A DNA stretch of 64,000 bases from an uncultured Actinomycetota bacterium (GCA_963829525.1 CAWHIJ010000003.1:1568001-1632000); one strand, 5' to 3'; counted from the first letter of the stretch, positions 653 through 52,536 are shown. Notes: generated by a model not told the origin, from the sequence alone. Numbers and translations: made by a program.

Positions 653-1383
653 CACATCACCGGCAACGGAGCGCCGTCGATCGTGCCGTCGATGGCCAGA
701 ATGCTGAAGCGGGCGAAGAGCTCTTCGGCGAACCACCCGGTGTCGCGGGTGCGTGCAATTGCTTCTCGGTGGCCGGGGCTCTCGTAGGCGAACTGCCGGA
801 TCGCGTCGGCATCACGCCAGATGCTGAAGGTTCCCTGGAGCCCTATCGGAGCTTCGCCGATGCCCTTGGACCAGATCAGGCCGTTGGAGTGCGACACGGC
901 GGATGCGGCCTCTGGCACCGACCGCCAGAAGTCCCTCAGCTGTTGGGGTCGGATCCGAGCTCTGGTGATCGAGGCGACCGGTCCGTCGTTGGTCGGTGGT
1001 GCCGCAGGTGTCGAGCCGAACGGCTGCTGCTTCGACCAGCGACCCATGCTCGAGAGCGGTCTCATGGTGATGTGCAGGCGTTCGGTGGCCGCGGCGTCCC
1101 AGCGTCGGAGGACGCGGGAGCGCTCGAACGTGACGGCGGCGTGCGGGGTGTCCCAGCAGGTGAGGAGAGCCCAGTGGTGCGGGTCGGCGTCCTGAGGGGC
1201 GAAGGTCCTGCCACTCCCGGTGCCAAGGAGCTTGGCGAAGGTGAGCCCGGGATACCCACGCAGGCGGAACCGGTCGACGGCAAGCCGTCCTACGGCCGAG
1301 GCGATACCGGCCCTCGGCACGGTCCAAATGTGCAGGCCGACCACTGCGGGGGTTGGCTCAGCGGTGAGGCCGGATGTGGACAT
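652..1383 (-). CDS. Spheroidene monooxygenase (CrtA)-like protein
   Basis: FAKLLGTGSG, GIGEAPIGLQGTFSIW, H..AI..T...WFAEELFARF motifs; leaderless TAAGGT -10. Confidence 0.75.
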   Translation of the reverse strand: MSTSGLTAEPTPAVVGLHIWTVPRAGIASAVGRLAVDRFRLRGYPGLTFAKLLGTGSGRTFAPQDADPHHWALLTCWDTPHAAVTFERSRVLRRWDAAATERLHITMRPLSSMGRWSKQQPFGSTPAAPPTNDGPVASITRARIRPQQLRDFWRSVPEAASAVSHSNGLIWSKGIGEAPIGLQGTFSIWRDADAIRQFAYESPGHREAIARTRDTGWFAEELFARFSILAIDGTIDGAPLPVM

Positions 1384-1414
1384 GGGTCGACCTTAGGGCG
1401 CCGAATCGAGGGGG

Positions 1415-1443
1415 TTGACGTCGGACGTGGTGAGGGGTTTACT
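1415..1443 (+). promoter_or_regulatory. Putative sigmaA promoter of the SOS operon
   Basis: TTGACG (1415-1420), 17 bp, TTTACT (1438-1443); -10 is imperfect. Confidence 0.45.
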
Positions 1444-1452
1444 AGAGCTTAT

Positions 1453-1468
1453 TCGAACACATGTTCGA
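1453..1468. promoter_or_regulatory. LexA SOS box
   Basis: TCGAACACATGTTCGA matches the actinobacterial consensus TCGAAC-N4-GTTCGA, upstream of the dnaE2/dinB operon. Confidence 0.93.
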
Positions 1469-1472
1469 ACCT

Positions 1473-1526
1473 GAGCCGGTCGGGTGGGGTGCTGACCTCG
1501 ACCCTCACCGCCCGCCCGACCGGCTC
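1473..1526 (+). other. Strong 5' UTR hairpin
   Basis: GAGCCGGTCGGGTGGG pairs with CCCGCCCGACCGGCTC (16 bp, one G-U). Confidence 0.7.
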
Positions 1527-1587
1527 CCCGGCTTCCTGGTCCAACTGATGGACCAACTGATGGCTCGACCTGACAGGAGACAGCCCG

Positions 1588-1923
1588 ATGCGACGGATCG
1601 ACGAGTCGATTGAGTCGTTGACTCCCGTTGCTAGCGGTGAGACGGCGCCGCTGGCCTTCCGGTGGCGCGGCCGACGCTATGTCGTCGGAGCGGTATTGGC
1701 GCACTGGGTCGAGACGGGTGCGTGGTGGCGTCGGGTCGCATCGCGCCCCAGCTCCGGCTTCGATGAGCTGCCCGACCCCGAGCGGTGGCTCTGGCGGGTC
1801 GAGGCGTGCCGCGGGGCACAGACCGGAGTTTTCGACCTTTGCCTGGAAGTCGACAACCGTCCCGACGAGAGCTCCTGTGATCGCGGTCCAGCGCGCTGGT
1901 CCTTGTATGCGATCTACGACTGA
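1588..1923 (+). CDS. DUF6504 family protein (ImuB C-terminal-domain-like)
   Basis: AGGAG RBS; PLAFRWRGRRY.V..V...W.ETGAWW...WRVEA...GVFDL...W.LYAIYD. Confidence 0.8.
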   Translation: MRRIDESIESLTPVASGETAPLAFRWRGRRYVVGAVLAHWVETGAWWRRVASRPSSGFDELPDPERWLWRVEACRGAQTGVFDLCLEVDNRPDESSCDRGPARWSLYAIYD

Positions 1924-1977
1924 CCACCCGACTGACCACCCGACTGACCTACCGACTGACCTACCGACTGACCTACC
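1918..1977 (+). repeat. 12-bp tandem repeat x5
   Basis: GACTGACCACCC x2 then GACTGACCTACC x3, starting at the DUF6504 stop codon. Confidence 0.95.
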
Positions 1978-1993
1978 TGAAGGGATGGCCCCC

Positions 1994-2437
1994 ATGTCCA
2001 TCGACTTGTCCGTCGACCACGCCATCGCTCGACGAACCCCTCGGGGGTCGTCGGCTGGGGTCCTCGACCTGCTTGCTGCTGCGCACCGCGGCCTCACCGA
2101 GGCGGTGCTCGAGCCACGGGCCAGTCGCCGCTACGCCGTCGCCCACCTGGCGGCGCTCCGGGCGGCTGCCGCCGTGCTGGCCACCCGTGCTCGTCCGACC
2201 GGCCGCCGTGGCCCGCGCAGCGCCTGGGATCTTCTCGGCCAGGCTGCCCCCGAGCTTGCTGAGTGGGCGGCTTTCTTCGCCGCTGGCGCCGGCAAGCGGG
2301 CGGCGGCCGAGGCTGGCCTGGACGCGGTCACGCCCCGGGAGGCCGACGACCTGCTCCGGGACGTTGAAACCTTCCTAGCGCTGGCCGAGACCACCGTCGG
2401 TGTCCCACACCAGACCTCGCTGCCCCGTGTCAGCTGA
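1994..2437 (+). CDS. SAV_6107 family HEPN domain protein
   Basis: RYAVAHLAALRAAAAVLA...SAWDLL...APELAEWAAFFAAGAGKRAAAEAG...READDLLRD; start 1985 or 1994. Confidence 0.88.
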   Translation: MSIDLSVDHAIARRTPRGSSAGVLDLLAAAHRGLTEAVLEPRASRRYAVAHLAALRAAAAVLATRARPTGRRGPRSAWDLLGQAAPELAEWAAFFAAGAGKRAAAEAGLDAVTPREADDLLRDVETFLALAETTVGVPHQTSLPRVS

Positions 2438-2458
2438 CGAACCGGTGTCAGCTGACGA
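2427..2458. repeat. 14-bp direct repeat (18-bp period) across the HEPN gene stop
   Basis: GTGTCAGCTGACGA at 2427 and 2445, each containing the palindrome GTCAGCTGAC. Confidence 0.85.
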
Positions 2459-2485
2459 CCCGCGCCCTGTTCGGGTCTGCTCTCG

Positions 2486-5400
2486 GTGACCGGCTCTTCT
2501 TCTTTTCCACACCTGCATGTCGCCTCCGGCTGGTCGCTGCGTCACGGCGCATCCAGCCCAGAGGCGCTCGTCTCCGTCGCGGCTGACCGCGGCCTCGCCG
2601 TTCTCGGTCTGACCGACCGCGATGGTGTCCGTGGCGCTGTGCGTTTTGCCCGCGCCACCCTCGCCGCCGGGATCGCTCCGGTCTTCGGCGCCGACCTCGC
2701 CCTCGCGCCACCCCCGAACCCGGGACGTGCCCCCGAGCGAGCTCGTCGTACGCCGGTTCGAGGAGGCCGCACTCGTGACCTCCGACTGCCCAGGGTCACG
2801 GTGCTGGCGCGTGGCCCGCATGGCTGGGCGGCGCTCTGTCGCCTGGTCTCCGCTGCCCATGCCCAAGCCGAGGCAGCCGGACGTCGGGGGTACCCGACGG
2901 TCGACGCCGACCTGGTCGCTCACTACGCGGCCGAAGGTGCCTTGGTGGTGCTGCTCGGTCCCGACTCCGACGTCGGTCGGATGCTGGCAAGGCGTCGCCC
3001 CGACCTCGCGACGCTGGCGTGGCAGAGATGGCGAGACCGCATCCCTGCGCTGTGGTGCGAAGTGGTCAACCATCGTGGCGCTGACCCGGTTGGTCGGTCG
3101 GCGCCGTTCGCCGGTCGGATGCTCGGATGGGCGCACGAGCAGCAGGCAGACACCTTGCTGTCCAACGCGGTTCGCTACGCCCGTCGCGAGGACGCCCCGG
3201 TCGCCGACGTGCTCGACGCCGCACGTCAGCTGGTTCCGCTTGACCTGCGCCACATCGATCGTCGCACCGGCGAGGGCTACCTGAAGTCGTCATCACAGAT
3301 GGCCGAGATCGCCGCCGAGGTCGCTCGTCTGTCCGGCGTCGGCACCGAGCGCTCCACCAGCCGCGCGTTGCTCGCCGCCACTGAACGGCTCGCGCAGCAG
3401 TGTGTCCTGTCCCCAGTGGCCGACCTCGGTCTCGGCTCGGTGCACTTTCCCGAGCTCGAGGTGGTCGACCCGACCGCTGCCGTGGCCGGACGTGCGCCCG
3501 ATGCCGTGCTGCGTGAGCGGTGCGCAGCCCGTTGGTCGGCCCGCGAGCTGCCGACCGGCGGGCAGGCCGGACGCGAGGCGCGCGACCGTCTGGAGCACGA
3601 GCTCGGCATCATCGCCAGCCTTGGCTACGCCACCTACTTCCTCACCGTCGCCGACGTCGTCGACCTGATCCGCTCGATGCAGATTCGGGTTGCCGCACGT
3701 GGTTCGGGTGCTGGGTCACTGGTTACCTACCTACTCGGAATCTCAGGGGTCGATCCGGTTCGGCACGACCTTCTCTTCGAAAGGTTCCTCTCTCCGCTTC
3801 GCCAGGCGCTGCCCGACATCGACATCGACGTCGAGTCAGCGCGGCGCCTTGAGATCTACACTCAGATCTTCGAGCGCTTCGGCACTGCTCGCGTCGCTTG
3901 TGTCTCCATGGCCGATACCTACCGCGTCCGGCACGCGATTCGTGATGTCGGTGCGGCGCTTGGTCTGCCGCCCTCTGAGATCGACATGATCGCGAAGGCG
4001 TTCCCACACATTCGCGCCAAGGACGCGCAGAACGCTTTGCGTGAGCTGCCAGAGCTGCGGGCCAGCCGGATCGCCGACGACCCGCGGATGACGTTGCTCT
4101 TCTCGCTCGTCGAGCGTCTCGACGGTTTGCCGCGTCACCTCGCACTGCACCCGTGTGGCGTTCTGCTCTCCGACGCCACGCTGCTCGATCGCACACCGGT
4201 CGAGCAGAGCGCGATGGGTTTTGCCATGAGCCAGTTCGACAAGGACGACGTCGAGCACCTTGGCCTACTCAAGCTCGATGTCCTCGGCATCCGCATGCAG
4301 TCGGCGATGGCCTATGCCCTTGACGAGATCGAACGGGTCGACGGCCCGCAGCAGCGCCCTGACCTCGACAGCGTGCCGTTCGACGACCTGGCGACCTTCG
4401 ACCTCATCCGTTCCACGCACACCCTTGGGTGCTTTCAGATCGAGTCACCTGGTCAGCGTGAGCTGGTCGGCAAGTTCGCCCCCGAAACCTTCGACGATCT
4501 CATCATCGACATCTCGCTCTTCCGTCCCGGTCCGGTGAAGTCCGACATGGTCCGGCCCTTTCTCCATGCACGACATGGCTGGGCTGAGCCGCAGTACCTG
4601 CACCCCGACCTTGAGCCGGTACTGCGCTCCACCTACGGCGTTGTCGTCTTCCACGAGCAGGTGATCGACATGTTGCATGTCATCGCCGGGTGCTCCCGGG
4701 CCGAAGGTGACGAGAAGCGGAGGGCCCTCGGTGATCCCGATGGCCAGGCTGAGACGCGCGAGTGGTTCTATCGCTGTGCCCGAATGCGTGGGTACGACCT
4801 GCCGACAATCGAACGCATCTGGGATGTCCTGCGTGCGTTCGCCTCCTTCGGGTTCTGTAAGGCACACGCTGCAGCTTTTGCGCTGCCGACCTACCAGTCG
4901 GCGTGGCTCAAGACGCACCACACGGCTGGCTTCCTCGCTGGCGTCCTCACCCACGATCCCGGCATGTACCCGAAGCGGTTGATCCTCGACGACGCCCGAC
5001 AGTTCGGCGTCACCGTTTTGCCGCTCGACGTCAACGCATCCCGGACCGGCTATCGGGTCGAGCGGGTCGAGGTGGTCGACCCCGCTGACGCCCCTGCGCC
5101 GCCGCCCCGCACTCTCCCCGTCGCCGACTCCACGACCAGCCGGGCGCGCGGCGTCCTTGACCATCCGGCGCTTCCGGATGCCAGCGGTTACGGCATCCGC
5201 ATCGCGCTCGCCGAGGTCAAAGGAATCAGTGACGCCGAGGTCGAGCGGATCATTGCCGGGCAGCCTTTTCGTTCACTCACCGATTTCTGGCACCGCGCTG
5301 CCGTCTCGCGTCCGGTCGTCGAGCGGTTGGTGCTCGCCGGAGCCTTCGACAGGCTGCACGGCATCGACCTCACTCTTCCCGCTGCATCGGCGCGACGCCG

Positions 5401-6265
5401 GATCACCCGCCGAGACCTGCTGCTGGCAGTCGCTGAGCTCGACCGTTGGACCGCGATGCCCACGTTCCGTCGGGCCAAGTCTGGAGCTCGGCCTTCAGCA
5501 GTGGCCGGACCGGGCACCCAGCTCTCCTTCCCGCTCGGCCCCAGCGACGAGCAGGTGGCCCCCTCCGGTCTGCCGGAGATGACTGGCGCTGAGCAGGTCA
5601 GGGCAGAGCTCGACGTCCTCGGTCTGGACGCCAGCCGCCATGTCGTTGACTTCTACACCCCGTTGCTGCGTTCGCTCGACGTCGTGCGCTCCCGCGACCT
5701 GCTCACCTGTCGCTCGCGCAGCGAGATCTTGGTCGCGGGTGTGAAGGTGGCCACTCAGACACCGCCGATCCGTTCCGGCCGACGGGTCGTCTTCGTCACC
5801 CTCGACGACGCCACCGGCCCGGTCGATGCGACCTTCTTCGAAGATGCTCAAGGCCCCTATGCCGCGACGCTCTTCCACTCGTGGCTCCTGCTGATCCGGG
5901 GTGAGATACGCCGGACCGGTCCTCGGGGCGTCTCACTGCGTGCCACAGGGTGCTGGGAGCTTTCTGGTCTGTACGACCTGTGGCAGCGCAGTGGCACCGC
6001 CGCCATCCACGAGGTGCTCGACACGCCACCTCTGCTCAGCCCCTTGGGCACTAGCGCCGAGGAGGTGCAAGCTCCGGCTGGTCCGGCCCTGGTGGAGCCA
6101 GCCGGAATCACGGCTGGGGGAATGGGACGACGGCGTGTCCTGGTCCACCCCAGCGGCTTCCGCCAGTCGCCGTACGCAGACGTCCGCCCGGCAGGTGATG
6201 ACGTGAACCGCGGCACACCACCGCGCAAGCTCTGGCACTCCAGTCCAGGGAGCTCAGGTGGCTGA
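2486..6265 (+). CDS. dnaE2: Error-prone DNA polymerase III alpha (DnaE2 type)
   Basis: PHP domain, RGSGAGS, PDIDID, KLDVLG, FGFCKAHA, OB fold; degenerate PHP ligands; LexA box; second replicative dnaE in the window. Confidence 0.9.
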   Translation: MTGSSSFPHLHVASGWSLRHGASSPEALVSVAADRGLAVLGLTDRDGVRGAVRFARATLAAGIAPVFGADLALAPPPNPGRAPERARRTPVRGGRTRDLRLPRVTVLARGPHGWAALCRLVSAAHAQAEAAGRRGYPTVDADLVAHYAAEGALVVLLGPDSDVGRMLARRRPDLATLAWQRWRDRIPALWCEVVNHRGADPVGRSAPFAGRMLGWAHEQQADTLLSNAVRYARREDAPVADVLDAARQLVPLDLRHIDRRTGEGYLKSSSQMAEIAAEVARLSGVGTERSTSRALLAATERLAQQCVLSPVADLGLGSVHFPELEVVDPTAAVAGRAPDAVLRERCAARWSARELPTGGQAGREARDRLEHELGIIASLGYATYFLTVADVVDLIRSMQIRVAARGSGAGSLVTYLLGISGVDPVRHDLLFERFLSPLRQALPDIDIDVESARRLEIYTQIFERFGTARVACVSMADTYRVRHAIRDVGAALGLPPSEIDMIAKAFPHIRAKDAQNALRELPELRASRIADDPRMTLLFSLVERLDGLPRHLALHPCGVLLSDATLLDRTPVEQSAMGFAMSQFDKDDVEHLGLLKLDVLGIRMQSAMAYALDEIERVDGPQQRPDLDSVPFDDLATFDLIRSTHTLGCFQIESPGQRELVGKFAPETFDDLIIDISLFRPGPVKSDMVRPFLHARHGWAEPQYLHPDLEPVLRSTYGVVVFHEQVIDMLHVIAGCSRAEGDEKRRALGDPDGQAETREWFYRCARMRGYDLPTIERIWDVLRAFASFGFCKAHAAAFALPTYQSAWLKTHHTAGFLAGVLTHDPGMYPKRLILDDARQFGVTVLPLDVNASRTGYRVERVEVVDPADAPAPPPRTLPVADSTTSRARGVLDHPALPDASGYGIRIALAEVKGISDAEVERIIAGQPFRSLTDFWHRAAVSRPVVERLVLAGAFDRLHGIDLTLPAASARRRITRRDLLLAVAELDRWTAMPTFRRAKSGARPSAVAGPGTQLSFPLGPSDEQVAPSGLPEMTGAEQVRAELDVLGLDASRHVVDFYTPLLRSLDVVRSRDLLTCRSRSEILVAGVKVATQTPPIRSGRRVVFVTLDDATGPVDATFFEDAQGPYAATLFHSWLLLIRGEIRRTGPRGVSLRATGCWELSGLYDLWQRSGTAAIHEVLDTPPLLSPLGTSAEEVQAPAGPALVEPAGITAGGMGRRRVLVHPSGFRQSPYADVRPAGDDVNRGTPPRKLWHSSPGSSGG

Positions 6266-6277
6266 GAGGATGCCCTG

Positions 6278-7534
6278 GTGAGCAGGCAACAGCTCGGGCG
6301 TGGCATGGACGGCGGTGACCAGCCCGCCAGTGTCACCTCGCGCCGCGAGGTGGCCGATGACACCGGCTGCGACGTCCTGCATGTCGACATGGACGCGTTC
6401 TACGCATCGGTCGAACTGCTTCGCCACCCTGAGCTTGTCGGCACTCCCGTTGTCGTCGCAGGGGGAGGCACCCGCGGAGTCGTCCTGTCGGCCACATACG
6501 AGGCCCGTGCGCTCGGCGTCCACTCAGCGATGCCGACGTCACGTGCCCGCCGCCTGTGTCCCAACGCCACTTTCCTTGCGCCACACCATGAGGACTACGC
6601 GCGCATTTCATCGGGTGTCATGGCGATCTTCGGATCGGTCACTCCTGTCGTAGAGCCGCTCAGCCTCGATGAGGCCTTCCTCGACGTGCGTGGTGCGCAA
6701 CGAAGGCTCGGGTCACCGGCTGAGATCGGTGAGCTGATCCGTACCAAGGTCCAGGACGAACAGGGCATCACCTGTTCGGTCGGCGTCGCATCCACCAAGT
6801 TCGTCGCCAAGCTCGCCTCGGGGCGGTGCAAGCCCGATGGTCTGCTCGTCGTCCCAGCCGACAAGGTCATCGACTTCCTCCACCCACTCCAAATAGGCGC
6901 CCTGTGGGGAGTCGGTGACAAGACCGAAGAGGCATTGCACCGTCTTGGGCTGCGCACAGTCGCAGATCTGGCGAATACACCGATAGGAACGCTCGAACGC
7001 GCTATCGGCCCAGCTGCTGGACGGCACCTGTGGGAGCTGGCGTGGGGGCGCGATGAGCGCAGTGTCGTCGCCGATACCCAGGAGAAGAGCATCGGCAGGG
7101 ACCGTACCTTCGAGACCGACGTTGACGACGTCGAGGTGGTCTACCGCGAACTGCTGGCCCTCTCGCAGACGGTGGCGCGAGCACTCCGGGGCCGCGAGCT
7201 CGCCGGGAGGACGATCGCGATCCGGGTGCGGTTTGCCGACTTCACCACGATCACCCGCTCGCGCACCTTGGCGCATCCGACCGATGTCGCCCGTGACATC
7301 TACGCAACGGTTGTTGCCCTCTTCGACGCCCTCGGGCTTGATCGAGCTCGACTGCGCCTCGTGGGCGTTCGGGTGGAGGGCTTGGTCGACGGGTCGACCG
7401 TCGCCCACCAACTCACCTTCGACGAGCGCCCCGAAGCTTGGCGCGAAGCTGAGCGGGCCTCTGACCGGGCCGCCGACCGGTTCGGCCGAGGGGTGGTCCG
7501 CCCGGCAAGCCTGGTCGAGTCGCCCGACCCCTGA
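6278..7534 (+). CDS. dinB: DNA polymerase IV (Y family)
   Basis: HVDMDAFYAS, YEAR, SLDEAFLD, KPDG, RLVGVR, QLTF clamp motif; 12 nt after dnaE2. Confidence 0.95.
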   Translation: MSRQQLGRGMDGGDQPASVTSRREVADDTGCDVLHVDMDAFYASVELLRHPELVGTPVVVAGGGTRGVVLSATYEARALGVHSAMPTSRARRLCPNATFLAPHHEDYARISSGVMAIFGSVTPVVEPLSLDEAFLDVRGAQRRLGSPAEIGELIRTKVQDEQGITCSVGVASTKFVAKLASGRCKPDGLLVVPADKVIDFLHPLQIGALWGVGDKTEEALHRLGLRTVADLANTPIGTLERAIGPAAGRHLWELAWGRDERSVVADTQEKSIGRDRTFETDVDDVEVVYRELLALSQTVARALRGRELAGRTIAIRVRFADFTTITRSRTLAHPTDVARDIYATVVALFDALGLDRARLRLVGVRVEGLVDGSTVAHQLTFDERPEAWREAERASDRAADRFGRGVVRPASLVESPDP

Positions 7535-7725
7535 TGGAGCCAGCTGGGCTCCAGACGATCATGGGCTGTGCCGATGAACAAACGGTCACAGTCATTGCCG
7601 GTGATTTGCCGGTGGAGTTTCGCACTGGCGTCCGGGGACCTATCCTGGACGGGAGGGACGACCAGTTTCCCTCGTCCTCGGGTGAGCCCGGGGACGAACT
7701 GTGGTAGTCCAGCGAGGAGGAGGCC

Positions 7726-8104
7726 ATGCCGCTCTCTGAGCACGAGCAGCGCCTGCTCGAGCAGATGGAGCGTCAGCTCTACGCCGACGACCCCAAGTTG
7801 GCATCGACGCTTCGCGGAAGTGGTCGGTCGCTGCGTTCTCGACACCGGCTTGTCCTTGGTGCCCTGGGCGTAGTCCTTGGTCTGGCCGTGTTGGTTGCCG
7901 GAGTTGCGTCTCAGTTCTGGCCCGTCGGCGTGGCTGGCTTCCTCGTCATGCTGGGCGGCGGCTGGTGGGCGAGTACCGGTTGGCAAGGTGCGACGCGCAA
8001 CGCCTCTGCGGCGCCGCAGCAGTCACCAGAAGAGCTCACAACGCTCGGGATTCATGAACCGCATAGAAGAGCGCTGGGATCGCCGTCGCGACGGCGACCA
8101 GTAG
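7726..8104 (+). CDS. DUF3040 membrane protein (one apparent frameshift)
   Basis: MPLSEHEQRLLEQMERQLYADDPK N-terminus; FMNRIEERWDRRR C-terminus in another frame; GGAGG RBS. Confidence 0.85.
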
Positions 8105-8179
8105 CCGAGCTGCAGCACGCACCGCACGGCCTTCTGCTTGGCGGCCCCGTCCACTTGGTATGGCCTGGTCCACTTGGTC

Positions 8180-10617
8180 TTATCCGGTTGGCGCTTGCTG
8201 ACGTGACTTCGGCGTTCGCCAGTGCTGCCAGCGATCGGCCAGCCACTCGGCTGCGTGGTTCCGCCGTCGGCAAGGGCCAAGCGTCCAGAGGTGGGCCACC
8301 AGATGGCCCGACGTCGGTCGCGGGGGGAGATAGCCGCGTACAGGTCGCCACGGATGTCGCCGGCCAGCTGCTCTGATCTGTCCGGGACGGTCAGCGCGGT
8401 CGGCGGAACCGCGGTAGCGCAAGAACTCGACCCAGCGAGCCAACTGGCGCAGCTGTGCCGCTCGGGTGGGGCTGAGCCCACCTCGGGTCGGAATACGCTC
8501 GGCCAGATCGCGTGGCGTCTCGGTCGGCAGTGGACGCAGGTCGACATCGGTCGCCGCGTCGAGGACTTCCGCCCAGGCCGCGAGTATCGCGCTGTCGATT
8601 GACCCAGCATGGCGCCACCGTGACCGACGAACCATGACCGACGCCGCCTTGGGCGCGGCGATGGCGGCACCGCCCACCGCGATGACGAAGCAGCCACAGC
8701 AGGACCGTCGAGCCGTTGCCTTGCTCGGTGTCGGTGGCGGCCGAGCTCGACCCGATCGACTGGCCGCCTCGGTTGGCTCTGAGTCACCTCACGAGGTCGG
8801 GCGTCGTCCACCGCCGTTGCTGAGAGATCCGCCGCCGCGGCGGCAGAACCACACCACCGCCATCGTCGCGCCTCCACCCGGGTTGGCGGTGCTTGTCTTC
8901 TTGGGGTACGGGTGCCCAGCTCGGCGTAGCTCCACCATCGCCACCCCCTGGTGTGGGCTCGAAGCGGACCCAGCCCACGCCTTCGAACCACAGCTCGGGC
9001 CAGGCGTGCGCGTCGTGCGTCGTGACGACCCAGGTGCCGTCGTCGTCCTGTTCGCCGGGGGTGAATCCGACCTGCACCCGGGACGGGATGTCAAGGCTTC
9101 GGGCCATCAGCGCCATCGTCGCTGCGAACTGCTCGCAATATCCGCTGCGGTCTCGCAGGAAGTCTTCTAGTGCATCTGTGGCGTTTCCTTCCACCGTGTC
9201 GAGGCTGTAGGTGAAGTTGGTGCGGAACCAGTTCTGCAGCGCAAGCGCGCGGCCGTAGTCAGTCGTTGCGTCGGCGGTGACGTCCTCGGCCAGTGGAGTC
9301 AGTCGCTCCTCGATGCCGTCGGGGAGGTCGAGCCATTGGTAGAGGCGAGTTGTTGACCGATGGGTCCGCCGGGGGTGCTGCCTGCAACTGCTCGATGGTG
9401 GGCGTGATCTCCAGAGCGGTCGCGGTGTACTCCTGACCAAAAGCCGAGCCCTCCTCCTCGGCGCTGAAGACGTCGAAGGTCTGCTCGTCCCACCTCCAGT
9501 CGCCTGCGATATCGACCTTGGTGACCGGATAGGGGAGTGGCAGTCGGGGGGTGTCGAGAGCCCCGACGGTGATGTCGTAGCTCACCGGCGTCCGCGCGAT
9601 TGCGTCGGAGAGCCCAGGGGGGCTCGGTAGACCCGCCGGAGGCCTGTTGGTCGCTGCCCGCTGCCATTTCCTCGAGCGTCCAGGTCGTGCCATTGAACTT
9701 GTCGAGGGTGGCGATGCGCAGGTACTGAGGCGTCTGGGCCGCAGTTGTGTAGAAGAGGACCGCGCTGTCGTCCTGTTGAGTCAGATTGCGCTGCAGGTCG
9801 GTGATCGGGTTGATCGTGACGACGGTGCGGGCACTTGGTGACGACGCACCGCTGCCGTCACCCCCACTGCCGTCACCAGAGCCGCCACCGAACCTGCCGT
9901 CGCCGAGGCTGGGAAGAATCACCGGGACGATGACGGCAACGGTGAGCGCTGCGGCACCCAGCCTGCGGCCCGTGCCGCCCACGGAATGCACCTTCCCGTC
10001 GGCTCCGCCATCGATAGGCCGACCCCAGCGGGACAGTTCGACACGCCCGTCCTCAAGCAGGAGCAGCAACCAGCCAATGCCTGCCGCCAGGAACAACGGC
10101 CACGGGACGCCGTCAGGCAGCACCGTTGCCGGCACGAGGTAGAGCGTTAGCAGGGGGATGCCGGCGAGTGCCGCACGTCGACCACTGACCGCAATGGCAT
10201 CGACCGCCCAGGCGATGAGCGCCACGCCACTGACCACGAGGAACTGAATCCCTGCCGTGGCGGTCACCGGCGCGGTCTCCTGCGTGATCACGGTGTTTCC
10301 GTCACGTGCGAGATCGGCGAACACTCGCCAACGTCGCCATCTGGGAGGATCGCCGAACGCCGCGGTGTCTCTGGCGAAGAGCAGCGTCAGCAGCAGCAGC
10401 AGGCCACACGCCCTGCGCAGCCACGACCACCCATGTGGGGAGACCGAGGGCCCGGCCGGCAGCTCCGATCACCGCGACTGTTGCGATGGCGATCACCGAC
10501 ATGGCGAACCACGGACCGGTGAGCGTGGGGGAGAGCGCGAATGTCGTCAGCAGCGACGGCGACAGCGGCGGCCAGGGTGGGACGTAGCTGGTGCGACAAG
10601 TTTGCTCGCCTGCTCAT
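8180..10617 (-). CDS. Transglutaminase TgpA-like membrane protein (several frameshifts)
   Basis: GYCEQFA, HAWPE, FEPTP motifs; TM segments; ATGA overlap with DUF58. Confidence 0.82.
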
Positions 10618-18875: not shown

Positions 18876-20257
18876 TTCCGACGAGCCTCATCGATATTGC
18901 AGAGGCCGTCGGTGGACAGCTGGTGAGCGTCGCTGACCCCACAGCTGTGGTCGTGCACGTGTGTTCAGACACCCGCGACGTCATTCCCGGCAGCCTCTTT
19001 GTGGCGCTTGAGGGGACGCGCGTTGATGGCCACGACTTCGCCGAAGCCGCGGTGGCCTCTGGTGCGGTAGCGGTCCTTGGCTCCCGACCATCCGGATCAC
19101 CCATGATCGTGGTCCCCGACGTGCTTGTCGCACTTGGCCAGCTGGCAAGATTTCACATCGACCGACTCACCGACACGACGGTGATCGGGGTCACCGGGTC
19201 GGTAGGCAAGACCACGGCGAAGGATCTGATCGCGTCGGTGTTGGAGACCGATGGGCCCACGATCTCACCGCCTGGATCGTTCAACAACGAGCTTGGGCTG
19301 CCACTGACCGTGCTGTCGGCCGATCAAGACACGCGGTACCTCGTGTTGGAGATGGGTGCTCGGGGGCTGGGCCACATCGAGTACCTCTGTTCGATCGCGC
19401 CACCCGACGTGGGGGTTGAGCTCGTGGTGGGCACCGCCCACCTCAGCGAGTTCGGCAGCCGGGCGGCCATCGCCAACGCGAAGGCCGAGCTCGTCCGGGC
19501 ACTGCCTCCTGGCGGAACGGCGGTGCTGAATGCCGATGACGCCCTGGTTCAGAAGATGGCCGGTGAAACGGCGGCTGCTGTGACGTGGTTCGGCCAGCGC
19601 CATGGCGCGCAGGTCAGCGCCGAGGGCCTCTCCTTCGACACGTTGGACCGGGCCAGGTTCACCTTGCGCACACCGGTCGGTTCGGCGCTGGTCGAAATGC
19701 AGTTCGTGGGTGGTCACGCCCTACCGAACGCGCTTGCCGCGGCCGCCGTCGGCTGGTCGTTGGGTATGGACACCGACGCGATCGCCAGGGCACTCTCTTC
19801 GGCCACACCTCGTAGCAAGTGGCGCATGGAGGTAACCGAGCGTTCCGATGGGCTGATCGTCATCAACGATGCGTACAACGCCAGTCCTGAGGCGGTGCGG
19901 GCAGCACTCAAGTCGCTCAAGCAGATTGCTGGCAATCGACGCAGCTGGGCGGTTCTCGGCGAGATGCTCGAGCTCGGTGACCAATCTGGAGCCGAACACG
20001 ATGCCATCGGACGCCTCGTCGTGCGCTTGGATGTGCAACGGTTAGTCGTCGTCGGAGAAGGCGCCAAGCCTATGCACCTGGCTGCTGGGCTCGAAGGGTC
20101 GTGGGGACGGGAGTCCATGTTCGTTCCAGATGTCGCGGGCGCGATGGCGATCTTGCACGAAGAGGTGCGTCCGGACGACGTGGTCCTCGTGAAGGCGTCC
20201 AGGGCTGCGGGCCTCGAGGTTGTCGCTGCTGAGCTCTTGGGCGGAGACGTCGAATGA
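18872..20257 (+). CDS. murF: UDP-MurNAc-tripeptide D-Ala-D-Ala ligase
   Basis: GSVGKTT, NNELGLP, NDAYNASP, KASR; GTGA overlap. Confidence 0.96.
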   Translation: MIPTSLIDIAEAVGGQLVSVADPTAVVVHVCSDTRDVIPGSLFVALEGTRVDGHDFAEAAVASGAVAVLGSRPSGSPMIVVPDVLVALGQLARFHIDRLTDTTVIGVTGSVGKTTAKDLIASVLETDGPTISPPGSFNNELGLPLTVLSADQDTRYLVLEMGARGLGHIEYLCSIAPPDVGVELVVGTAHLSEFGSRAAIANAKAELVRALPPGGTAVLNADDALVQKMAGETAAAVTWFGQRHGAQVSAEGLSFDTLDRARFTLRTPVGSALVEMQFVGGHALPNALAAAAVGWSLGMDTDAIARALSSATPRSKWRMEVTERSDGLIVINDAYNASPEAVRAALKSLKQIAGNRRSWAVLGEMLELGDQSGAEHDAIGRLVVRLDVQRLVVVGEGAKPMHLAAGLEGSWGRESMFVPDVAGAMAILHEEVRPDDVVLVKASRAAGLEVVAAELLGGDVE

Positions 20258-21339
20258 GGCTAGTGCTGGTCGCGGTCATCGTCAGCCTCGTCATCGGGTT
20301 CGTGGTGACCCCCTTGTGGGCCAAGTGGCTGAGCACCCGGGGCTACGCCCAATCCATCCGCGACGCCGAGGAGCTGGGCTACGCCGTCCCCGACCACGCA
20401 GGCAAACGGGGCACACCGTCCATGGGTGGCGTTGTCATCGTCGCCGGAACAGTCGTGAGCTACGCGGCCGCTCACCTCATCGCCGGTAGTGGTCCGAGCG
20501 CGGCGGCGATGCTCGTGTTGTTCCTCATGGTGGGTCTGGCATCCGTCGGATTCGCCGACGACTACATCAAGATTTTTCGGAGACGGTCGACCGGACTGCG
20601 GGTCAAGACCAAGCTCATCGGACAGGCCGCCGTAGCGATTGTCTTTGCGCTTCTCGCCCTGCAATTCCCCAGTGTTGAAGGGCTGACACCTGCTACGCAG
20701 TACATCTCGTTTGTTCGTGACACTGCCGTCTTCTTGCCGATTGGCATCTATGTCCTGTGGGTCTGGTTCATGGTGGCGGCCACTTCCAACGCGGTTAACC
20801 TCTCCGACGGGCTCGACGGGCTCGCCACCGGAGCGGCTTCGATGGTGTTCGGCGCGTACGTGACTGTGGGCCTGTGGCAGTACAACCAGAGATGCGCTGA
20901 TAGTCGTGCTTCCGAACTGCTACGAGGTGCGGAATCCCCTCGATCTGGCTGTCGTCGCAGCTGGAGTCATGGGTTCGTGCTTCGGGTTCCTCTGGTGGAA
21001 CACGTCACCAGCTCGCATCTTCATGGGGGACACGGGATCACTTGGCTCTCGGCGGCGCCATGGCCGGCATCGCGATCTGCACCCAGACCGAGCTGCTGCT
21101 TCCGGTGATGGCTGGCCTGTTCGTGGCCATCACTGCGTCGGTCATCATCCAGATCGCCTCGTTCAAGACGACGGGGAAGACGAGTCTTCCTGATGTCCCC
21201 GATCCAGCACCACTTCGAGATCAAGGGCTGGCCCGAGGTCCAGATCGTCACCAGATTCTGGATCATCTCCGGTCTCTTCACCGGAGCCGGTTTCATGCTC
21301 TTCTACACCGAGTGGCTCGGTGGGGGCGGCATCGGGTGA
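20254..21339 (+). CDS. mraY: Phospho-MurNAc-pentapeptide transferase (frameshifts)
   Basis: [36 protein letters not shown] across frames. Confidence 0.93.
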
Positions 21340-22793
21340 CCGCCTCGTCTGCTGTCTCCGAGTGGCTACGGGCGGCCGACCGAGCAGCCGACTGGTCAGG
21401 CGTCCGCGCGTGTGTCGTTGGCCTCGGAAAGAGCGGGTTCGCAGCAGCTGACGCCTTGCTGCGAGTGGGCGCGCGAGTCGAGGTCGTCGAGGCCGGTGAG
21501 GCGTCGAGATCAGGCTCACTGACAGGAGCGGGCCCAGATCCTCCAGACTCTGGGAGCAGCAGGTCCGGCTGGGTGTCCGCGGCGACGCCGGGATCGAGTG
21601 CGACCTCCTGGTCCCCTCTCCGGGCATCCCCCCGCACCATCGTTGGATCACAGGTGCCAGGGCCGGGACCATCTGGAGCGGCGAGCAGCTTGCCTGGAAC
21701 CTGCGCGTCTCCACCGTTCCGTGGCTCACCCTCACCGGAACCAACGGCAAGACGACCACGACCCAGCTGCTTGATGCAATGCTCAGAACAGCAGGTCTGC
21801 GGAGCCTTGCCGCCGGCAACATCGGGGTGCCCCTCGTAGAAGCTGTCTTCGCCGAGCCGCAGCCGGAGGTGCTGGTCGTCGAGCTGTCCAGCTTCCAGCT
21901 GCACTTCACCGAGACGGTCTCAGCGCACTCGTCGGCACTGCTCAACATTGCCGAGGACCACCTTGACTGGCATGGCTCATTCGACGCCTACATCGCCGAC
22001 AAGTCCAAGATCTTCACCAGGGTCGAGCACACCGTCGTCTACAACCATGACGATTCGCGCACAGAGGCGCTGGCCGAGGCTGCCGACGTGATGGAGGGCT
22101 GCCGTGCGGTCGGTTTCACCCTCGGTGTTCCTGGACGGGCGATGTTGGGTGTTGTCGACGGAGTCCTGGTCGACCGCGCCTATGGCGCCAACCGCGCCAC
22201 GCATGCTGAGCCGATCGTCGATGTTGACGCGCTTGCGATGGCCGGAGCGCATAACGTCCGCAACGTGTTGGCAGCAGCGGCACTGGCGCGATCGTTTGGA
22301 GTAGCTATCGCTGACGTACGTTCTGGGGCGCATTGGATTTGAGGTCGACGCTCATCGGGGCGAGCTTGTGGGGACCTTCGGCGATGTGCGATTCGTAGAT
22401 GACTCAAAGGCGACCAACGTGCTGGCCGCAGACGTGGCTCTTGCCGCGGCCAGCGGGCAGGTGGTGTGGATCGCGGGGGGACTGGCCAAAGGGGGCTCCT
22501 TCGATGCCCTTGTGCAGCGGCACCGGTCCAAGCTTCGCGCCGTGGTGCTCTTAGGCACTGACCGCTCGCTGATCGCCCAGGCACTCGCGCGACACGCGCC
22601 CGAGGTCCCGGTGATCGAGGTGCCGGACGGGGAGACTGAGCCTATGACTGACGCTGTTCGGATTTCGGCCTCGGTGGCCCAGCCGCACGACACCGTGCTG
22701 CTCGCTCCGGCGTGCGCGTCCATGGACCAGTTCTCCGACTACCAGGCCAGGGGTCAAGCTTTCAGTTCAGCCGCGGCCCGGCTCCGCCGCTGA
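21336..22793 (+). CDS. murD: UDP-MurNAc-L-Ala D-Glu ligase (frameshifts)
   Basis: [39 protein letters not shown]. Confidence 0.93.
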
Positions 22794-41277: not shown

Positions 41278-41415
41278 CTACCCGGAGCGTCGGTTCGGGG
41301 TTCGGGGGTGGGGCCGACTACAGTCGGCAGGGCCGCCTTCCCCCGGCACTTCACAGCCACTCAAGAACCCTCCACGGTTCTTCCGAACGACCCTCTCAGG
41401 GAGGCCGGCGCCGGT

Positions 41416-44400
41416 ATGGCCGACTCGTTCGTGCACCTGCACGTGCACACCGAGTACTCCATGCTCGACGGTGCCGCCCGCGTCGGTGAGCTGCTCGACG
41501 CCGCAGTCGATCAGCAGATGCCCGCCATTGCGATCACCGATCACGGAAATCTCTTCGGCGCCCACGACTTCTACCGTCAGGCGCGCGACCGCGGAATCAG
41601 ACCGATCGTCGGGATCGAGGCCTACCTGACCCCTGGCACCGATCGCCGCGACCGCACCAGGGTCCGGTGGGGCGGCGGTGGCCAAGACGACGTCTCCGGC
41701 GCCGGTGCCTACACGCACATGACCATGCTGGCCCAATCGACAGCCGGTATGCACAACCTGTTCCGACTCTCCAGTCTGGCGAGCATCGAGGGCTTCTACT
41801 TCAAGCCGCGGATGGACCGAGAGCTGCTACAGACCTACTCCGACGGCATCATTGCCACGACCGGATGTCCATCCGGTGAGGTGCAGACGTTGCTTCGTCT
41901 CGGCAAGTACGACGCCGCAGTCCAGGCCGCGTCGGACTACCGGGACATCTTCGGGGCGGACAACTACTTCTGCGAGCTGATGGACCACGGCCTCGACATC
42001 GAACGGCGTCCACGGGACGACTTGCTTCGCCTGGCCAAGCAGCTGAACCTGCCGCTCGTCGCCACCAACGACCTGCACTACACCCATGCTGCTGACGCAG
42101 AGTCGCACGCGGCGTTGCTGTGCGTGCAGTCCGGCTCGACCCTGGCCGACCCCACCCGCTTCAAGTTCGACGCCGACGAGTTCTACCTCAAGACGGCAGA
42201 GGAGATGCGCGAGGTCTGGCGTGACTATCCCGAGGCATGTGACAACACCTTGCTCATCGCCGAGCGCTGCCAGGTTGCCTTCAACGAGGACGCCAACCTC
42301 ATGCCGCGCTACGACGTCCCCGACGGCGAGACTGAGGCGTCCTGGTTCGTCAAAGAGGTAGAGCGCGGTCTGCATCTTCGCTACCCGACGGGGATCTCCG
42401 ACGAGGTGCGCAAGCAGGCCGAGTACGAGGTCGGCGTCATCTGCCAGATGGGCTTTCCCGGCTACTTCCTGGTCGTCGCCGACTTCATCGGATGGGCCAA
42501 GCGACAAGGCATCCGGGTCGGCCCCGGCCGCGGGTCGGCTGCTGGCGCGATCGTGGCCTACGCGCTGGGGATCACCGACCTCGATCCTCTGCAGCATGGA
42601 CTGCTGTTCGAGCGCTTCCTCAACCCCGAACGGGTCTCGATGCCCGACATCGACATCGACTTCGACGAGCGCCGTCGCGGTGACGTCATTCGCTACGTCA
42701 CCGAACGGTACGGCGACGACCGCGTCGCGCAGATCGTGACCTACGGCACCATCAAGGCCAAACAAGCGATCAAGGACTCCTCGCGAGTTCTTGGCTATCC
42801 CTATGCACTGGGGGACCGCATCACCAAGGTGTTACCGCCATCGGTTATGGGGAAGGACATCTCCCTCAAGGGAGTCTTCGACGCGAAGGACAAGCGTTAC
42901 AACGAAGCCGGCGAGTTCCGCTCCCTCTACGAGTCCGACGCTGACGTCAAGCGGGTGGTCGACACCGCTCGTGGCCTCGAGAACCTCAAGCGTCAGTGGG
43001 GCGTGCACGCCGCCGGTGTGATCATGTCCAGCGAGCGGCTGATCGACCACATTCCCATCATGAAGCGCGAGCAGGACGGCGCGATCATCACGCAGTTCGA
43101 CTACCCGACCTGCGAACGGCTCGGGCTGCTGAAGATGGACTTCCTGGGTCTTCGCAACCTCACGGTTCTGGAGGACGCGCTCGCCAACATCGAGGCGAAC
43201 CGAGGCGAGACCGTGGTACTCGAGACGCTCACCCTGGACGACAAGCCCACCTATGAGCTCTTGGCCACCGGTGACACGCTGGGTGTCTTCCAGCTCGACG
43301 GCGGGCCGATGCGGGCACTCCTGCGCTCAATGGTGCCGGACAGCTTCGAGGACATCTCGGCAGTCCTGGCGCTCTACCGCCCGGGGCCGATGGGGGCCAA
43401 CGCGCACAACGACTACGCCGACCGCAAGAACGACCGCAAGCCGGTGACGCCGATCCATCCAGAGCTTGAAGAGCCACTCGCCGATATCTTGGGTGACACC
43501 TACGGTGTCATCGTCTACCAGGAACAGGTCATGGCGATCGCTCAGCAGCTCGCTGGTTACACCCTGGGCCAGGCAGACCTGCTGCGACGGGCAATGGGCA
43601 AGAAGAAGAAGGAAGTTCTCGACAAGGAGTTTGTGCCGTTCTCTGACGGCATGCGCGCACGCGGGTATTCCGACAAGGCGATCTCCACGCTGTGGGAGAT
43701 CCTCGTTCCTTTCGCCGACTACGCCTTCAACAAGGCGCACACCGCCGGGTACGGGCTCGTCTCCTACTGGACGGCCTATCTCAAGGCGAACTTCCCAGCC
43801 GAGTACATGGCCGCGCTGCTCACGTCGGTCCGCGACGACAAGGACAAGTCAGCCCTCTACCTGCACGAGTGCAGGCGCATGGGCATCAAGGTGCTTCCCC
43901 CAGATGTCAATGACTCGGATGCGAACTACACCCCCCGTGGAACCGATATCCGCTTCGGACTCGCTGCGATTCGCAATGTCGGGCTCAACGTCGTTGGCTC
44001 AATCGTCGAAGCCCGACGCGCCAAGGGCAGGTTCGCCGACTTCGCTGACTTCCTCGCCAAGGTCGACCAGGTGGTCTGCAATAAACGGGTTATCGAGTCA
44101 CTGGTCAAGGCTGGCGCCTTCGACTCACTTGGGCACACCAGACGTGGGCTCATCGCGGTACATGTCGAAGCAGTCGACATGGTGCTGGAGACCAAGCGTG
44201 CCGAGGCGATCGGCCAGTTCGACCTTTTCGGGTCGTCCGAGGACAGCGACACAGCTGGCTTCACCTCCGAGCTGACGATTCCGGTCGGTGAGTGGGAGAA
44301 GTCAACGTTGCTGACGCACGAGCGCGACATGCTGGGCCTGTATGTGTCAGACCATCCGCTCTTCGGAGTCGAGCACGTGCTGGCAGCCAACTCCGACTGC

Positions 44401-44931
44401 TCGGTGGCTGAGCTGATGGCAGATGGTGAGCGGCCGGACGGATCGACGATAACTGTCGGCGGTCTGATCACCGGTCTTCAGCGCAAGGTCACCAAACAGG
44501 GAAATGCGTGGGCCATCGCAACACTGGAGGATCTTGAGGGCGCCATCGAGGCGATGTTCTTCCCAGCCACCTACAACCTGGTCGCTCCGCACCTGCACGA
44601 AGACCGCATCGTCTTGGTGCGGGGGCGAATCGACCGCCGCGAAGATGTTCCGAAGCTCATCGCGATGGAACTGACGGTTCCCGATCTCGACGTGGAGGAG
44701 GCGCGGGGCCCGGTCGTCATTACCCTTCCGGTCGCGCGATGTGTGCCGCCTGTTGTCGACCGCCTCAAGGAGGTGCTGAGCGCGCACCCGGGAACGGTCG
44801 AGGTACACCTTCAGCTGCAATCGGGTGGGCGAACCACAGTCATGCGACTTGACGATCGGCTGCGGGTACGACCATCGCCGGCGCTCTTTGGCGATGTGAA
44901 GGCGCTCCTCGGGCAGGCCAGCGTCGCGTGA
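41416..44931 (+). CDS. dnaE: Replicative DNA polymerase III alpha
   Basis: [18 protein letters not shown] intact PHP; PDIDIDF, YAFNKAH, QFDLF clamp motif. Confidence 0.98.
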
Positions 44932-50323: not shown

Positions 50324-50341
50324 GTGCACCGTGAGACGATC

Positions 50342-50984: not shown

Positions 50985-50994
50985 CCTGCACGAC

Positions 50995-52527: not shown

Positions 52528-52536
52528 GCTGCCGGC

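Follow-up and report, generated by a model that had tools for sequence, protein, structure and literature searches.

In actinobacteria, damage-induced mutagenesis is driven by DnaE2-type DNA polymerases, and in mycobacteria this extends to the emergence of chromosomal drug resistance (PMC10421592), which lends weight to the question of how the expression and assembly of these enzymes are controlled beyond LexA. The locus considered here bears on that question. It lies at the left end of a 64-kb stretch of DNA from an uncultured Actinomycetota bacterium (GCA_963829525.1 CAWHIJ010000003.1:1568001-1632000, 64,000 nt; hereafter the window), whose closest records among the matches listed are metagenome-assembled genomes (MAGs) of Actinomycetes and Candidatus Nanopelagicales. 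A mismatch-free LexA box is followed there, on the + strand, by four genes encoding a DUF6504 protein, a HEPN_SAV_6107 protein, a C-family polymerase, and a Y-family polymerase. On balance, we favor reading this locus as a LexA-repressed translesion-synthesis operon to which two conserved parts have been added, the HEPN protein and a hairpin in the leader. The polymerase part appears to match a class that is already in print, and what appears to be new is the link of the HEPN protein to the SOS response and to both types of mutasome, together with the leader hairpin. The locus adds these two conserved parts to a mutasome class that has so far been known from genome comparison and modelling. 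If either the HEPN protein or the hairpin controls the output of the polymerases, it would constitute a new layer of SOS regulation; otherwise, DUF6504 and PF18726 (the Pfam family of the HEPN protein) gain a firm genomic context, which our literature searches found in print for neither. The features of the operon are as follows.

1453..1468, no strand assigned: LexA box, perfect palindrome TCGAACACATGTTCGA, the sole mismatch-free match in the window; predicted site
1478..1521, + strand: leader hairpin, candidate cis-regulatory RNA (fold, covariance model R1, covariation)
1588..1923, + strand: DUF6504 protein, 111 amino acids (aa), all-beta in its model (Pfam PF20114, E 1.3e-17)
1917..1977, + strand: tandem repeat with a 12-nt unit in 5.1 copies (score 87 in Tandem Repeats Finder)
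1994..2437, + strand: HEPN_SAV_6107 protein of 147 aa, which becomes 150 aa if the ATG at 1985 is the start (Pfam PF18726, E 3.1e-33)
2486..6265, + strand: C-family DNA polymerase (P0003), 1259 aa, probable DnaE2B (Pfam domains, NCBIfam, identities)
6278..7534, + strand: Y-family polymerase DinB / Pol IV, 418 aa (NCBIfam PRK03858, 380 bits against a cutoff of 367)

The SOS box and the genes behind it

The box is the only match without mismatches to TCGAAC-N4-GTTCGA in the 64 kb, and when up to two mismatches are allowed there are nine matches, compared to 3.2 expected from shuffles. Judged by its sequence and its place in a promoter region, the site at 1453-1468 is an actinobacterial SOS-regulon box (TCGAAC-N4-GTTCGA). 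A further LexA-like site with one mismatch, at 2746-2761 inside the polymerase gene, is probably there by chance. The end of the box is separated from the first start codon by 119 nt, and the spacers between the four genes measure 70, 48, and 12 nt, the first of these shrinking to 61 nt with the second start option for the HEPN gene, an in-frame ATG at 1985. All four genes are intact, and the G+C content of the operon stretch is ~64-73%. The initial annotation of this DNA had described a perfect LexA box with four co-oriented genes at gaps of about 12-70 nt behind it, and both the open reading frames (ORFs) of the window and the scan for boxes agree with that description.

Related loci were collected in one genome scan seeded with an alignment of 25 HEPN relatives (A1), in which at least 600 stretches matched; 582 of these were confirmed and the best 80 kept (cited below by number, L001 to L080). 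Their genes were placed by tblastn, by purpose-built hidden Markov models (HMMs), and by Pfam and NCBIfam searches on selected ORFs. A polymerase of the P0003 type lies directly 3' of HEPN in 49 of the 80 loci. The initial annotation had posited a linkage of the small genes to the polymerase, and the survey upholds it, as DUF6504 lies upstream in 48 of these 49 loci, the exception (L064) being cut at a contig end. Scored against imuA'/imuB, DUF6504 is found in none of the five loci that contain imuB. Layouts were counted on the 68 loci with at least 6.5 kb of downstream sequence. The most frequent is DUF6504-HEPN-DnaE (39 loci), of which 23 also carry an S-adenosylmethionine (SAM) methyltransferase and DinB, 14 carry DinB only, as in the window, and 2 carry the methyltransferase only. 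HEPN is accompanied by DnaE without DUF6504 in a single locus (L064), by DUF6504 without DnaE in 4, and only by the methyltransferase in 13, with DinB present in 4 of these; it adjoins an imuA'-imuB-dnaE2 cassette in 5 and stands alone in other settings in 6. The five cassette loci come in two orders. In three of them (L065, an Acidothermaceae MAG, and L058 and L068, unclassified Actinomycetes MAGs), HEPN and the methyltransferase follow the cassette (in L058 the span is 1919-8435), and HEPN has its own LexA box and hairpin, while in the two Dactylosporangium loci (L079 and L080:7590-15034) the order is box-HEPN-imuA'-imuB-dnaE2.

The backbone common to these loci is (DUF6504)-HEPN-(DnaE2)-(methyltransferase)-(DinB)-DUF3040, followed by tgpA on the opposite strand and the dcw cluster, and the window follows it minus the methyltransferase, no member of that family being found in the 64 kb. 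In most lineages (L004-L011, L014-L020, and others), the methyltransferase, which is of one family throughout, lies between the polymerase and DinB or right after HEPN; on NCBIfam it comes closest to CmoM, a tRNA methyltransferase, at 94 bits and below the cutoff of 366. HEPN and the methyltransferase form a single ORF in L029 (7974-9200). An apparent HEPN-DnaE fusion ORF in L002 was rejected, as the two genes are in different frames and the long ORF arises from an upstream frame left open in G+C-rich sequence.

The box is conserved along with these genes. A perfect box lies upstream in 60 of the 74 judgeable loci, that is, those with more than 300 nt of upstream sequence, a box being counted when no more than 450 nt from the first gene (L016 and L042 were assigned by eye). 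In total, the 80 loci contain 64 perfect boxes, 61 of them at the first-gene position, 3 before imuA', and none elsewhere. A box also precedes HEPN as the first gene with no DnaE2 near, for example in L028, L037, L046, L047, L052, L055, and L063. There is no perfect box in the four Streptomyces loci or in the group L057, L060, L066, and L075.

Given the presence of the box, we infer that LexA represses the operon and that DNA damage induces it, and for an analogous operon, the SOS-box operon dnaE2-dinB2 of Streptomyces, an approximately six-fold induction by UV has been published (Tsai et al. 2012, PMC3273824). DNA damage would lead to RecA-stimulated cleavage of LexA, the box at 1453-1468 would be freed, and the four genes would be co-transcribed. 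The DnaE2-type polymerase, with its substituted PHP proofreading site, and the active DinB-type polymerase would then act in lesion bypass. DUF6504 may be the free-standing equivalent of ImuB-C, the C-terminal domain of ImuB, and hold the PHP domain of DnaE2, as its context, its fold class, and the literature (the model in PMC12926913) suggest, whereas DinB would bring the clamp through its QLTF motif and RecA through its RecA-NT-like tail, so that DUF6504 and DinB together would replace ImuA' and ImuB. HEPN_SAV_6107 would be a separate accessory linked to the SOS box, found with both kinds of DnaE2 system and not an obligate subunit of either. At or close to its start, the transcript would have a conserved stem-loop with an invariant CUCGACCC loop, which may protect the message or be read by a factor, for which the HEPN protein is the obvious candidate.

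Two polymerases and a candidate adaptor

P0003 has the full DnaE set of Pfam domains (PHP, DNA_pol3_alpha, finger, HHH_6, and OB). On NCBIfam it scores 636.5 bits for 'error-prone DNA polymerase' (NF004225; cutoff 939) and 626.7 bits for DnaE (cutoff 1002), and the error-prone model gives 1487.7 bits, against the same cutoff of 939, for DnaE2 from an imuA'B locus. Its identity is 28% with the DnaE1 of the window (41278-44931), 30-32% with DnaE2 from imuA'B loci, and 54-57% with a clade from the related loci, so that DnaE1 and DnaE2A lie at an equal distance from it. As far as its sequence goes, P0003 lies outside the canonical ImuC/DnaE2A group and belongs to neither curated NCBIfam family. 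Three of the first five PHP motif positions that DnaE1 keeps are substituted in P0003, which fits the account of DnaE2 in PMC12926913. The P0003 clade also has a conserved C-terminal extension (window 6050-6262), with an end motif in nearly all full-length copies; this extension is absent from DnaE1 and from the DnaE2 linked to imuA'B.

The Y-family partner had been said in the initial annotation to keep its catalytic residues, and the alignment to solved Pol IV structures confirms this: the motifs VDMDAFY and SLDEA of DinB align to the same motifs in those structures, the alignment spans the whole core, and the QLTF of the tail aligns with the QLSF of the best PDB match. Both catalytic motifs are present in 41 of the 46 orthologous ORFs from the related loci and the window, and the tail motif is present in 40 of the 46, strict patterns being used for both. 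DinB is catalytically intact by sequence and predicted to be active. The segment after QLTF corresponds to the 'RecA-NT-like motif' extracted for the orthologues CCH88881.1 and ABS04677.1, from Modestobacter marinus and Kineococcus radiotolerans (Table S2, PMC6511836); in the tables of that paper, the DinB orthologues are found in Table S2 only and not among the ImuB-C operons. Pfam DUF4113 does not match DinB at E <=0.01. An ImuA' query from L058, itself validated at 172 bits on NF058630 (cutoff 65), had no phmmer match at E <=1 among the six-frame ORFs of the window, the ImuB of L058 matched the DinB gene alone and weakly in the same ORFs, and Pfam found no second Y-family gene among 52 further window ORFs. 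The earlier statement that imuA'/imuB are missing is, by these phmmer and Pfam searches, accurate for the 64 kb, in which recA is likewise not found.

The combination of a DnaE2 without ImuA/ImuB and an active PolY had been put forward as a candidate non-canonical SOS mutasome, and this has been overtaken by the description of an Actinobacteria-only class (PMC12926913), for which the standalone ImuB-C and the mutasomes without ImuA reported earlier were the groundwork (PMC3765255, PMC6511836). DnaE2 splits into groups A, B, and X, with group B occurring in genomes without imuA/imuB; the partners of one Actinobacteria-only B group are RecA, an active PolY, and a standalone ImuB-C, and ImuB-C is the sole partner of another (PMC12926913). 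AlphaFold models place ImuB-C, a beta-barrel whose fold is not in the PDB, on the PHP domain of DnaE2 (PMC12926913), and Tessaracoccus lapidicaptus is the example given of a putative DnaE2B-PolY-[ImuB-C]-RecA mutasome (NAR 2026, Timinskas, Venclovas and co-workers, PMC12926913). The window resembles this module in its active PolY with a RecA-NT-like motif and differs from it in the HEPN gene between the small protein and the polymerase and in the leader hairpin; no mention of either was found in that paper, whose main text has 0 occurrences of 'HEPN'. The C-terminal domain of ImuB had previously been found to stand on its own as well, as a small beta-rich protein encoded in DinB or DnaE2 operons, in which a C-terminal Trp and basic residues are conserved (PMC3765255), and mutasome variants without ImuA, as well as RecA-NT-like motifs in the tails of PolY proteins, are also on record (PMC6511836).

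Other systems share some of these parts. With the ImuA'-ImuB-DnaE2 mutasome of Mycobacterium and Caulobacter, the window shares an SOS-box cassette composed of a non-proofreading DnaE paralogue and a Y-family protein, and HEPN_SAV_6107 adjoins cassettes of that kind in L058, L065, L068, L079, and L080; however, the window has neither ImuA' nor a dead ImuB, its Y-family protein is active, and its polymerase falls far short of the canonical one on the error-prone model. The Streptomyces dnaE2-dinB2 operon likewise has dnaE2 followed by dinB with an SOS box in front, and its induction by UV and methyl methanesulfonate (MMS) has been shown (PMC3273824), but DinB2 is classed as inactive there and its gene overlaps dnaE2 by 4 bp, whereas the DinB of the window is catalytically intact and lies 12 nt away (PMC6511836). 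Cited earlier as a precedent for the present locus, the Streptomyces pair is a poor one where two active polymerases are meant, given that its DinB2 has been placed among the inactive proteins (PMC6511836). HEPN lies elsewhere, next to the dcw cluster, in the Streptomyces loci of the survey, of which there are four. Lastly, the Geobacter lexA-imuB-C-polY operon has a small standalone gene of the ImuB-C type before an active PolY under SOS control (PMC6511836) and resembles L042, L045, and L050 (DUF6504-HEPN-methyltransferase-DinB); unlike it, the window has no lexA gene, has DnaE2 and HEPN in addition, and belongs to another phylum.

The role of an adaptor would fall to DUF6504. Its AlphaFold2 model, from a 71-sequence alignment, has a pLDDT of 85.6 and consists of six strands and one short helix, for which no neighbor was found among PDB folds (best E 1.3, TM <=0.31), and W104, R29, and R70 are invariant or nearly so in the 71 sequences. 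In this model and its operon context, DUF6504 shows the traits of the ImuB-C family, namely a beta-rich fold of ~100 residues, a C-terminal Trp, and basic residues, traits that are descriptive and leave homology unproved. Its distribution is complementary to that of imuB, as in the loci that lack DUF6504 and have imuB, ImuB brings its own C-terminal domain, and in L042, L045, and L050 it stays with DinB where there is no DnaE2B. The last 15 residues of DUF6504 match the last 13 of an ImuB by BLASTP (E 0.021), the two proteins ending alike. A protein atlas search with DUF6504 returned only DUF6504 (30 of 30 matches) and, with the family excluded, no usable match; PDB sequence searches with DUF6504, HEPN, and ImuB gave nothing informative, and the literature search found no publication naming DUF6504. 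By analogy, DUF6504 likely works like ImuB-C, as a free-standing adaptor, given the position of its gene, its tracking of the polymerase in 48 of 49 loci, the company of DinB, and its absence from imuB loci. We do not claim that it is a member of the ImuB-C family, the formal sequence tests being insignificant. The split adaptor with a HEPN accessory proposed in the initial annotation is in this respect half sustained: the split adaptor fits DUF6504 as the free-standing counterpart of ImuB-C, while a HEPN subunit is not supported.

Several results weigh against this account of the operon. The DUF6504 HMM has no match among 121 ImuB proteins, and hhalign of DUF6504 with ImuB-C gives a probability of 1.4% (E 0.038; four settings). 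With filters off, actinobacterial ImuB C-termini score a median of 2.35 bits, compared to -1.4 for shuffles, and 55 of 1400 shuffles reach the real median while reversed sequences score up to 5.8 bits. A search for fused forms of DUF6504 among longer proteins, a weak search in itself, returned one 289-aa match and no Y-family fusion. P0003 is probably a DnaE2B, its class having been matched by description. There is no imuA'/imuB within the 64-kb window, and the genome may have a pair elsewhere. In two published DnaE2B examples, whose ImuB-C proteins are VEP41449 and ALV45565, the accessions of ImuB-C and DnaE2 are consecutive (PMC12926913), which suggests that no HEPN gene stands between them and that HEPN is lacking there or the layout differs. 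A role in mutagenesis is not established for this class of polymerase, since deletion of dnaE2 in S. coelicolor left UV killing and mutagenesis unaffected (PMC3273824). The survey was seeded with HEPN and leans toward close relatives, so the frequency of DUF6504 or the polymerase without HEPN is outside its reach. A scan of 1300-7900 for promoters and terminators found no promoter-like site; the one terminator-like site in that scan lies inside the HEPN gene, fewer than in shuffles, and is uninformative.

The insignificance of every sequence test against actinobacterial ImuB C-termini, and the retention of DUF6504 with DinB in the three loci without DnaE2B, would also fit DUF6504 being another small accessory factor with no relation to ImuB-C, for example a partner of DinB in the manner of UmuD or YolD. 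We regard this as unlikely, though worth keeping in view: DUF6504 tracks the polymerase and is absent where ImuB is present, the beta-rich fold without a PDB match is what has been reported for ImuB-C (PMC12926913), the C-terminal end is common to DUF6504 and ImuB, and standalone ImuB-C has itself been reported with DinB alone (PMC3765255).

The HEPN protein and the leader hairpin

HEPN_SAV_6107 is a large family, with more than 6,268 clusters (90% identity) at E 0.001 among 8,000 candidates scored, and it is strongly conserved, 44 columns being invariant in the 25 sequences of alignment A1. The model of the window protein (pLDDT 87.5) is a helical bundle whose top Foldseek matches in the PDB are HEPN proteins, the best being 2hsb (probability 1.00, TM 0.54/0.59); with an E value of 0.049 for that match, the fold evidence alone is modest. 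By its Pfam match together with this modelled helical bundle, the protein is a member of the HEPN superfamily. HEPN RNases carry an Rx4-6H motif at the start of the last helix. The last helix of the window protein (114-135) starts with R115 and contains no His, and thus lacks the RNase-type motif, but R46-x4-H51 at the start of helix 2 (window 2129-2146) is kept in 85 of 86 complete copies, L073 having Tyr for His. The family has been described as HEPN-M (SAV_6107), actinobacterial and without a conserved Rx4-6H, with no gene context listed, among domains that are mostly RNA-directed (Anantharaman et al. 2013, PMC3710099). The window protein agrees with this description in its Pfam match and its helical-bundle fold and departs from it in its conserved SOS context and in a near-invariant R-x4-H at a non-canonical place. 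PADLOC returned weak matches of ~16 bits to the candidate system PDC-M05B (E 0.002).

No other gene of the locus is as persistent as HEPN. A LexA box precedes it in most lineages, and it adjoins DnaE2 cassettes of both kinds, in three gene orders, yet it also occurs without any DnaE2 in reach, because of which an accessory factor fits better than an obligate polymerase subunit. HEPN is probably such an accessory factor, linked to the SOS box. A literature search found SAV_6107 named in one publication and none that combines HEPN, LexA, and dnaE2.

The second conserved addition is the hairpin, which in the window starts 10 nt after the box (1478-1521) and has a G+C-rich stem of ~17 pairs and the loop C-CTCGACCC; the segment 1466-1590 folds at -58.2 kcal/mol (z -4.6). 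Folding the 110 nt that follow each LexA box gave a long G+C-rich hairpin in most loci, with a variable stem and the loop (A/C)CTCGACCC. Across the window and the 80 loci, both strands counted, TCGACC occurs at 3,323 sites and is flanked by a stem of at least 13 pairs at 45 of them, 38 of which are on the + strand and no more than 1 kb upstream of HEPN. In an ungapped seed alignment (A5, 16 sequences), all 18 pairs change on both sides, and 90.6% of the cells pair, compared to 58.6% when shuffled and 38-50% when slid; this paired percentage is inflated because the sequences were chosen for having the stem, which does not apply to the compensatory changes. A plain MAFFT alignment (A4) had given only 11 pairs in RNAalifold, as indels misplace the stems, and was superseded by A5 and the covariance model.

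The covariance model built from A5 (R1) was searched against 1,183,023 nt at E <=1 and gave 49 matches, all on the + strand, of which 48 precede DUF6504 or HEPN, in the window and in 47 loci (16 of them are seeds), and one lies elsewhere (L011:9151). The match in the window, at 41.4 bits, is the only one in the 64 kb. Across the 45 distinct matches, in an alignment fitted to the model, 93.9% of cells pair, compared to 56.4% when shuffled and 40-46% when slid. G.U cells number 81 and A.C cells 16 in the hairpin alignment, an excess which implies that the sense (+) strand folds and points to RNA. Among 77 judgeable sources, 48 contain the hairpin, 45 of them with a box and 3 without; a box but no hairpin is seen in 17, and neither element in 12. 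The distance from box to hairpin ranges from 6 to 93 nt, with a median of 37 nt. The hairpin also precedes HEPN where DUF6504 and DnaE2B are both lacking (L029, L047, L052, L055, L058, L063, L065, and L068), and the R1 search found none at the three boxes that head imuA'. Searched with Rfam 15, the window (1300-2600) matched Atu_C10 alone, below its gathering score (22.7 against 60 bits), and nine related loci (131,062 nt) gave no match; a literature search for the loop octamer together with LexA returned unrelated papers only. We infer that the hairpin with its CUCGACCC loop is a cis-acting RNA element, serving mRNA stability or the landing of a regulator. A second copy of the loop heptamer, CTCGACC, lies at 1564-1570, just 5' of the ribosome-binding site of DUF6504, and otherwise only at L002:7587 and L003:7595, in the two closest full-length relatives. 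As a general feature this copy was rejected, since an extra copy before or in the HEPN gene is found in 9 of 48 sources and near the start codon in 3.

What the HEPN protein does at these loci admits several readings besides that of an accessory factor whose target is left unspecified. One is that HEPN recognizes or cuts the CUCGACCC hairpin of its own leader and so exerts post-transcriptional feedback on the SOS polymerase operon, rather than being a subunit of the polymerase. HEPN domains are mostly RNA-directed (PMC3710099), a conserved loop on a variable stem suits sequence-specific recognition, the R-x4-H is almost never lost, and the hairpin goes with HEPN in the eight loci without DUF6504 and DnaE2B while being absent at the imuA' boxes of the same loci; but the R-x4-H lies in helix 2, away from the RNase position, in a family listed as lacking the motif (PMC3710099), HEPN persists in the 17 box-only loci and in the 12 with neither box nor hairpin, and as all loci were selected for HEPN, the co-occurrence is no independent test. 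We therefore hold direct pairing of HEPN with the hairpin to be doubtful. Still more tentative is an extension of it, in which HEPN_SAV_6107 and the CUCGACCC hairpin would form an RNA-level control module of the actinobacterial SOS response, HEPN being derepressed from LexA and binding or cleaving the 5' hairpin of the mutasome mRNA through its relocated R-x4-H. If true, such a module would time or cap the expression of DnaE2-type polymerases, both of the ImuA'/ImuB type and of the DnaE2B type. A different role for HEPN, suggested by the neighborhood, is as the partner of the SAM methyltransferase that follows it, acting on RNA or another substrate, with the polymerases as co-regulated syntenic neighbors and the methyltransferase lost from the lineage of the window. 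The methyltransferase, of one family throughout, comes after HEPN or DnaE2B in 43 of the 68 loci, its best match is to a tRNA methyltransferase, albeit below cutoff, and the HEPN-methyltransferase-DUF3040-TgpA backbone beside dcw is fixed even where there are no polymerases. The single ORF of L029 points the same way, although it is one MAG case and possibly an indel artefact. However, the methyltransferase is missing from the window and from 14 further loci, and in L079 and L080 HEPN stands beside imuA'-imuB-dnaE2 without it and in another genomic setting, so that we consider this partnership unlikely, if deserving of attention.

The view taken in the initial annotation, that HEPN serves the DnaE2 complex as a structural or regulatory subunit and would bind DUF6504, DnaE2, or DinB, draws on its place between DUF6504 and the polymerase, with short spacers, in 48 loci, on its adjoining imuA'-imuB-dnaE2 in five loci and two orders, and on its very strong conservation. 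It has not been borne out, as HEPN persists at LexA-box loci without DnaE2 or DUF6504: 19 of the 68 loci have HEPN with neither kind of DnaE2 and no DUF6504, the Streptomyces HEPN lies near the dcw cluster with dnaE2-dinB2 elsewhere (PMC3273824), and the published DnaE2B examples appear to be without HEPN (PMC12926913). A subunit role is in our judgment improbable. Far less probable again is that HEPN is the toxin of a toxin-antitoxin pair, or part of an anti-phage module, that merely happens to be located in the operon. Its best fold matches do include the HEPN toxins of MNT-HEPN pairs, and there is the weak PADLOC match to PDC-M05B, but at scores of just ~16 bits; no nucleotidyltransferase or antitoxin-like gene is next to it, its chromosomal position beside the dcw cluster is fixed across orders, a LexA box is conserved upstream, and the canonical HEPN motif is absent (PMC3710099). 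The accessory factor linked to the SOS box remains the reading of HEPN that we prefer.

Spacer repeats and neighboring genes

The spacer between DUF6504 and HEPN is filled by the 12-nt repeat at 1917-1977, in which the stop codon of DUF6504 recurs in frame in each unit; the closest relatives (L001-L003) have two to three copies of it after DUF6504. The spacer after HEPN (2427-2462) contains an 18-nt tandem repeat in two copies, which is present in L003 and absent in L002. Both repeats begin inside the stop codon of the preceding gene, and each unit repeats that stop in frame.

Downstream of DinB, here and in nearly all related loci, a DUF3040 gene (7726-8376) precedes tgpA and the dcw cluster. 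This gene belongs to the conserved backbone, and nothing ties it to the polymerases. The window also holds the dcw region (mraZ, mraW, ftsI, mur genes, ftsW, and ftsZ), followed by sepF, ileS, lspA, dnaE1, and his and trp genes. Several of these housekeeping genes are split or truncated (20233-22793, 8023-10468, and 47567-53212): murD is in two ORFs (21500-22342 and 22305-22793), mraY is short, the tgpA ORF has the N-terminal domain only, and the his genes are fragmented, a sign of either gene decay or indel errors in the assembly. Upstream of the LexA box, a divergent gene on the - strand (652-1383) resembles CrtA spheroidene monooxygenase (178.6 bits, below the cutoff of 300) and DUF3291. 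It shares its intergenic region with the box and is probably unrelated to the operon, as it is conserved only in the closest relatives.

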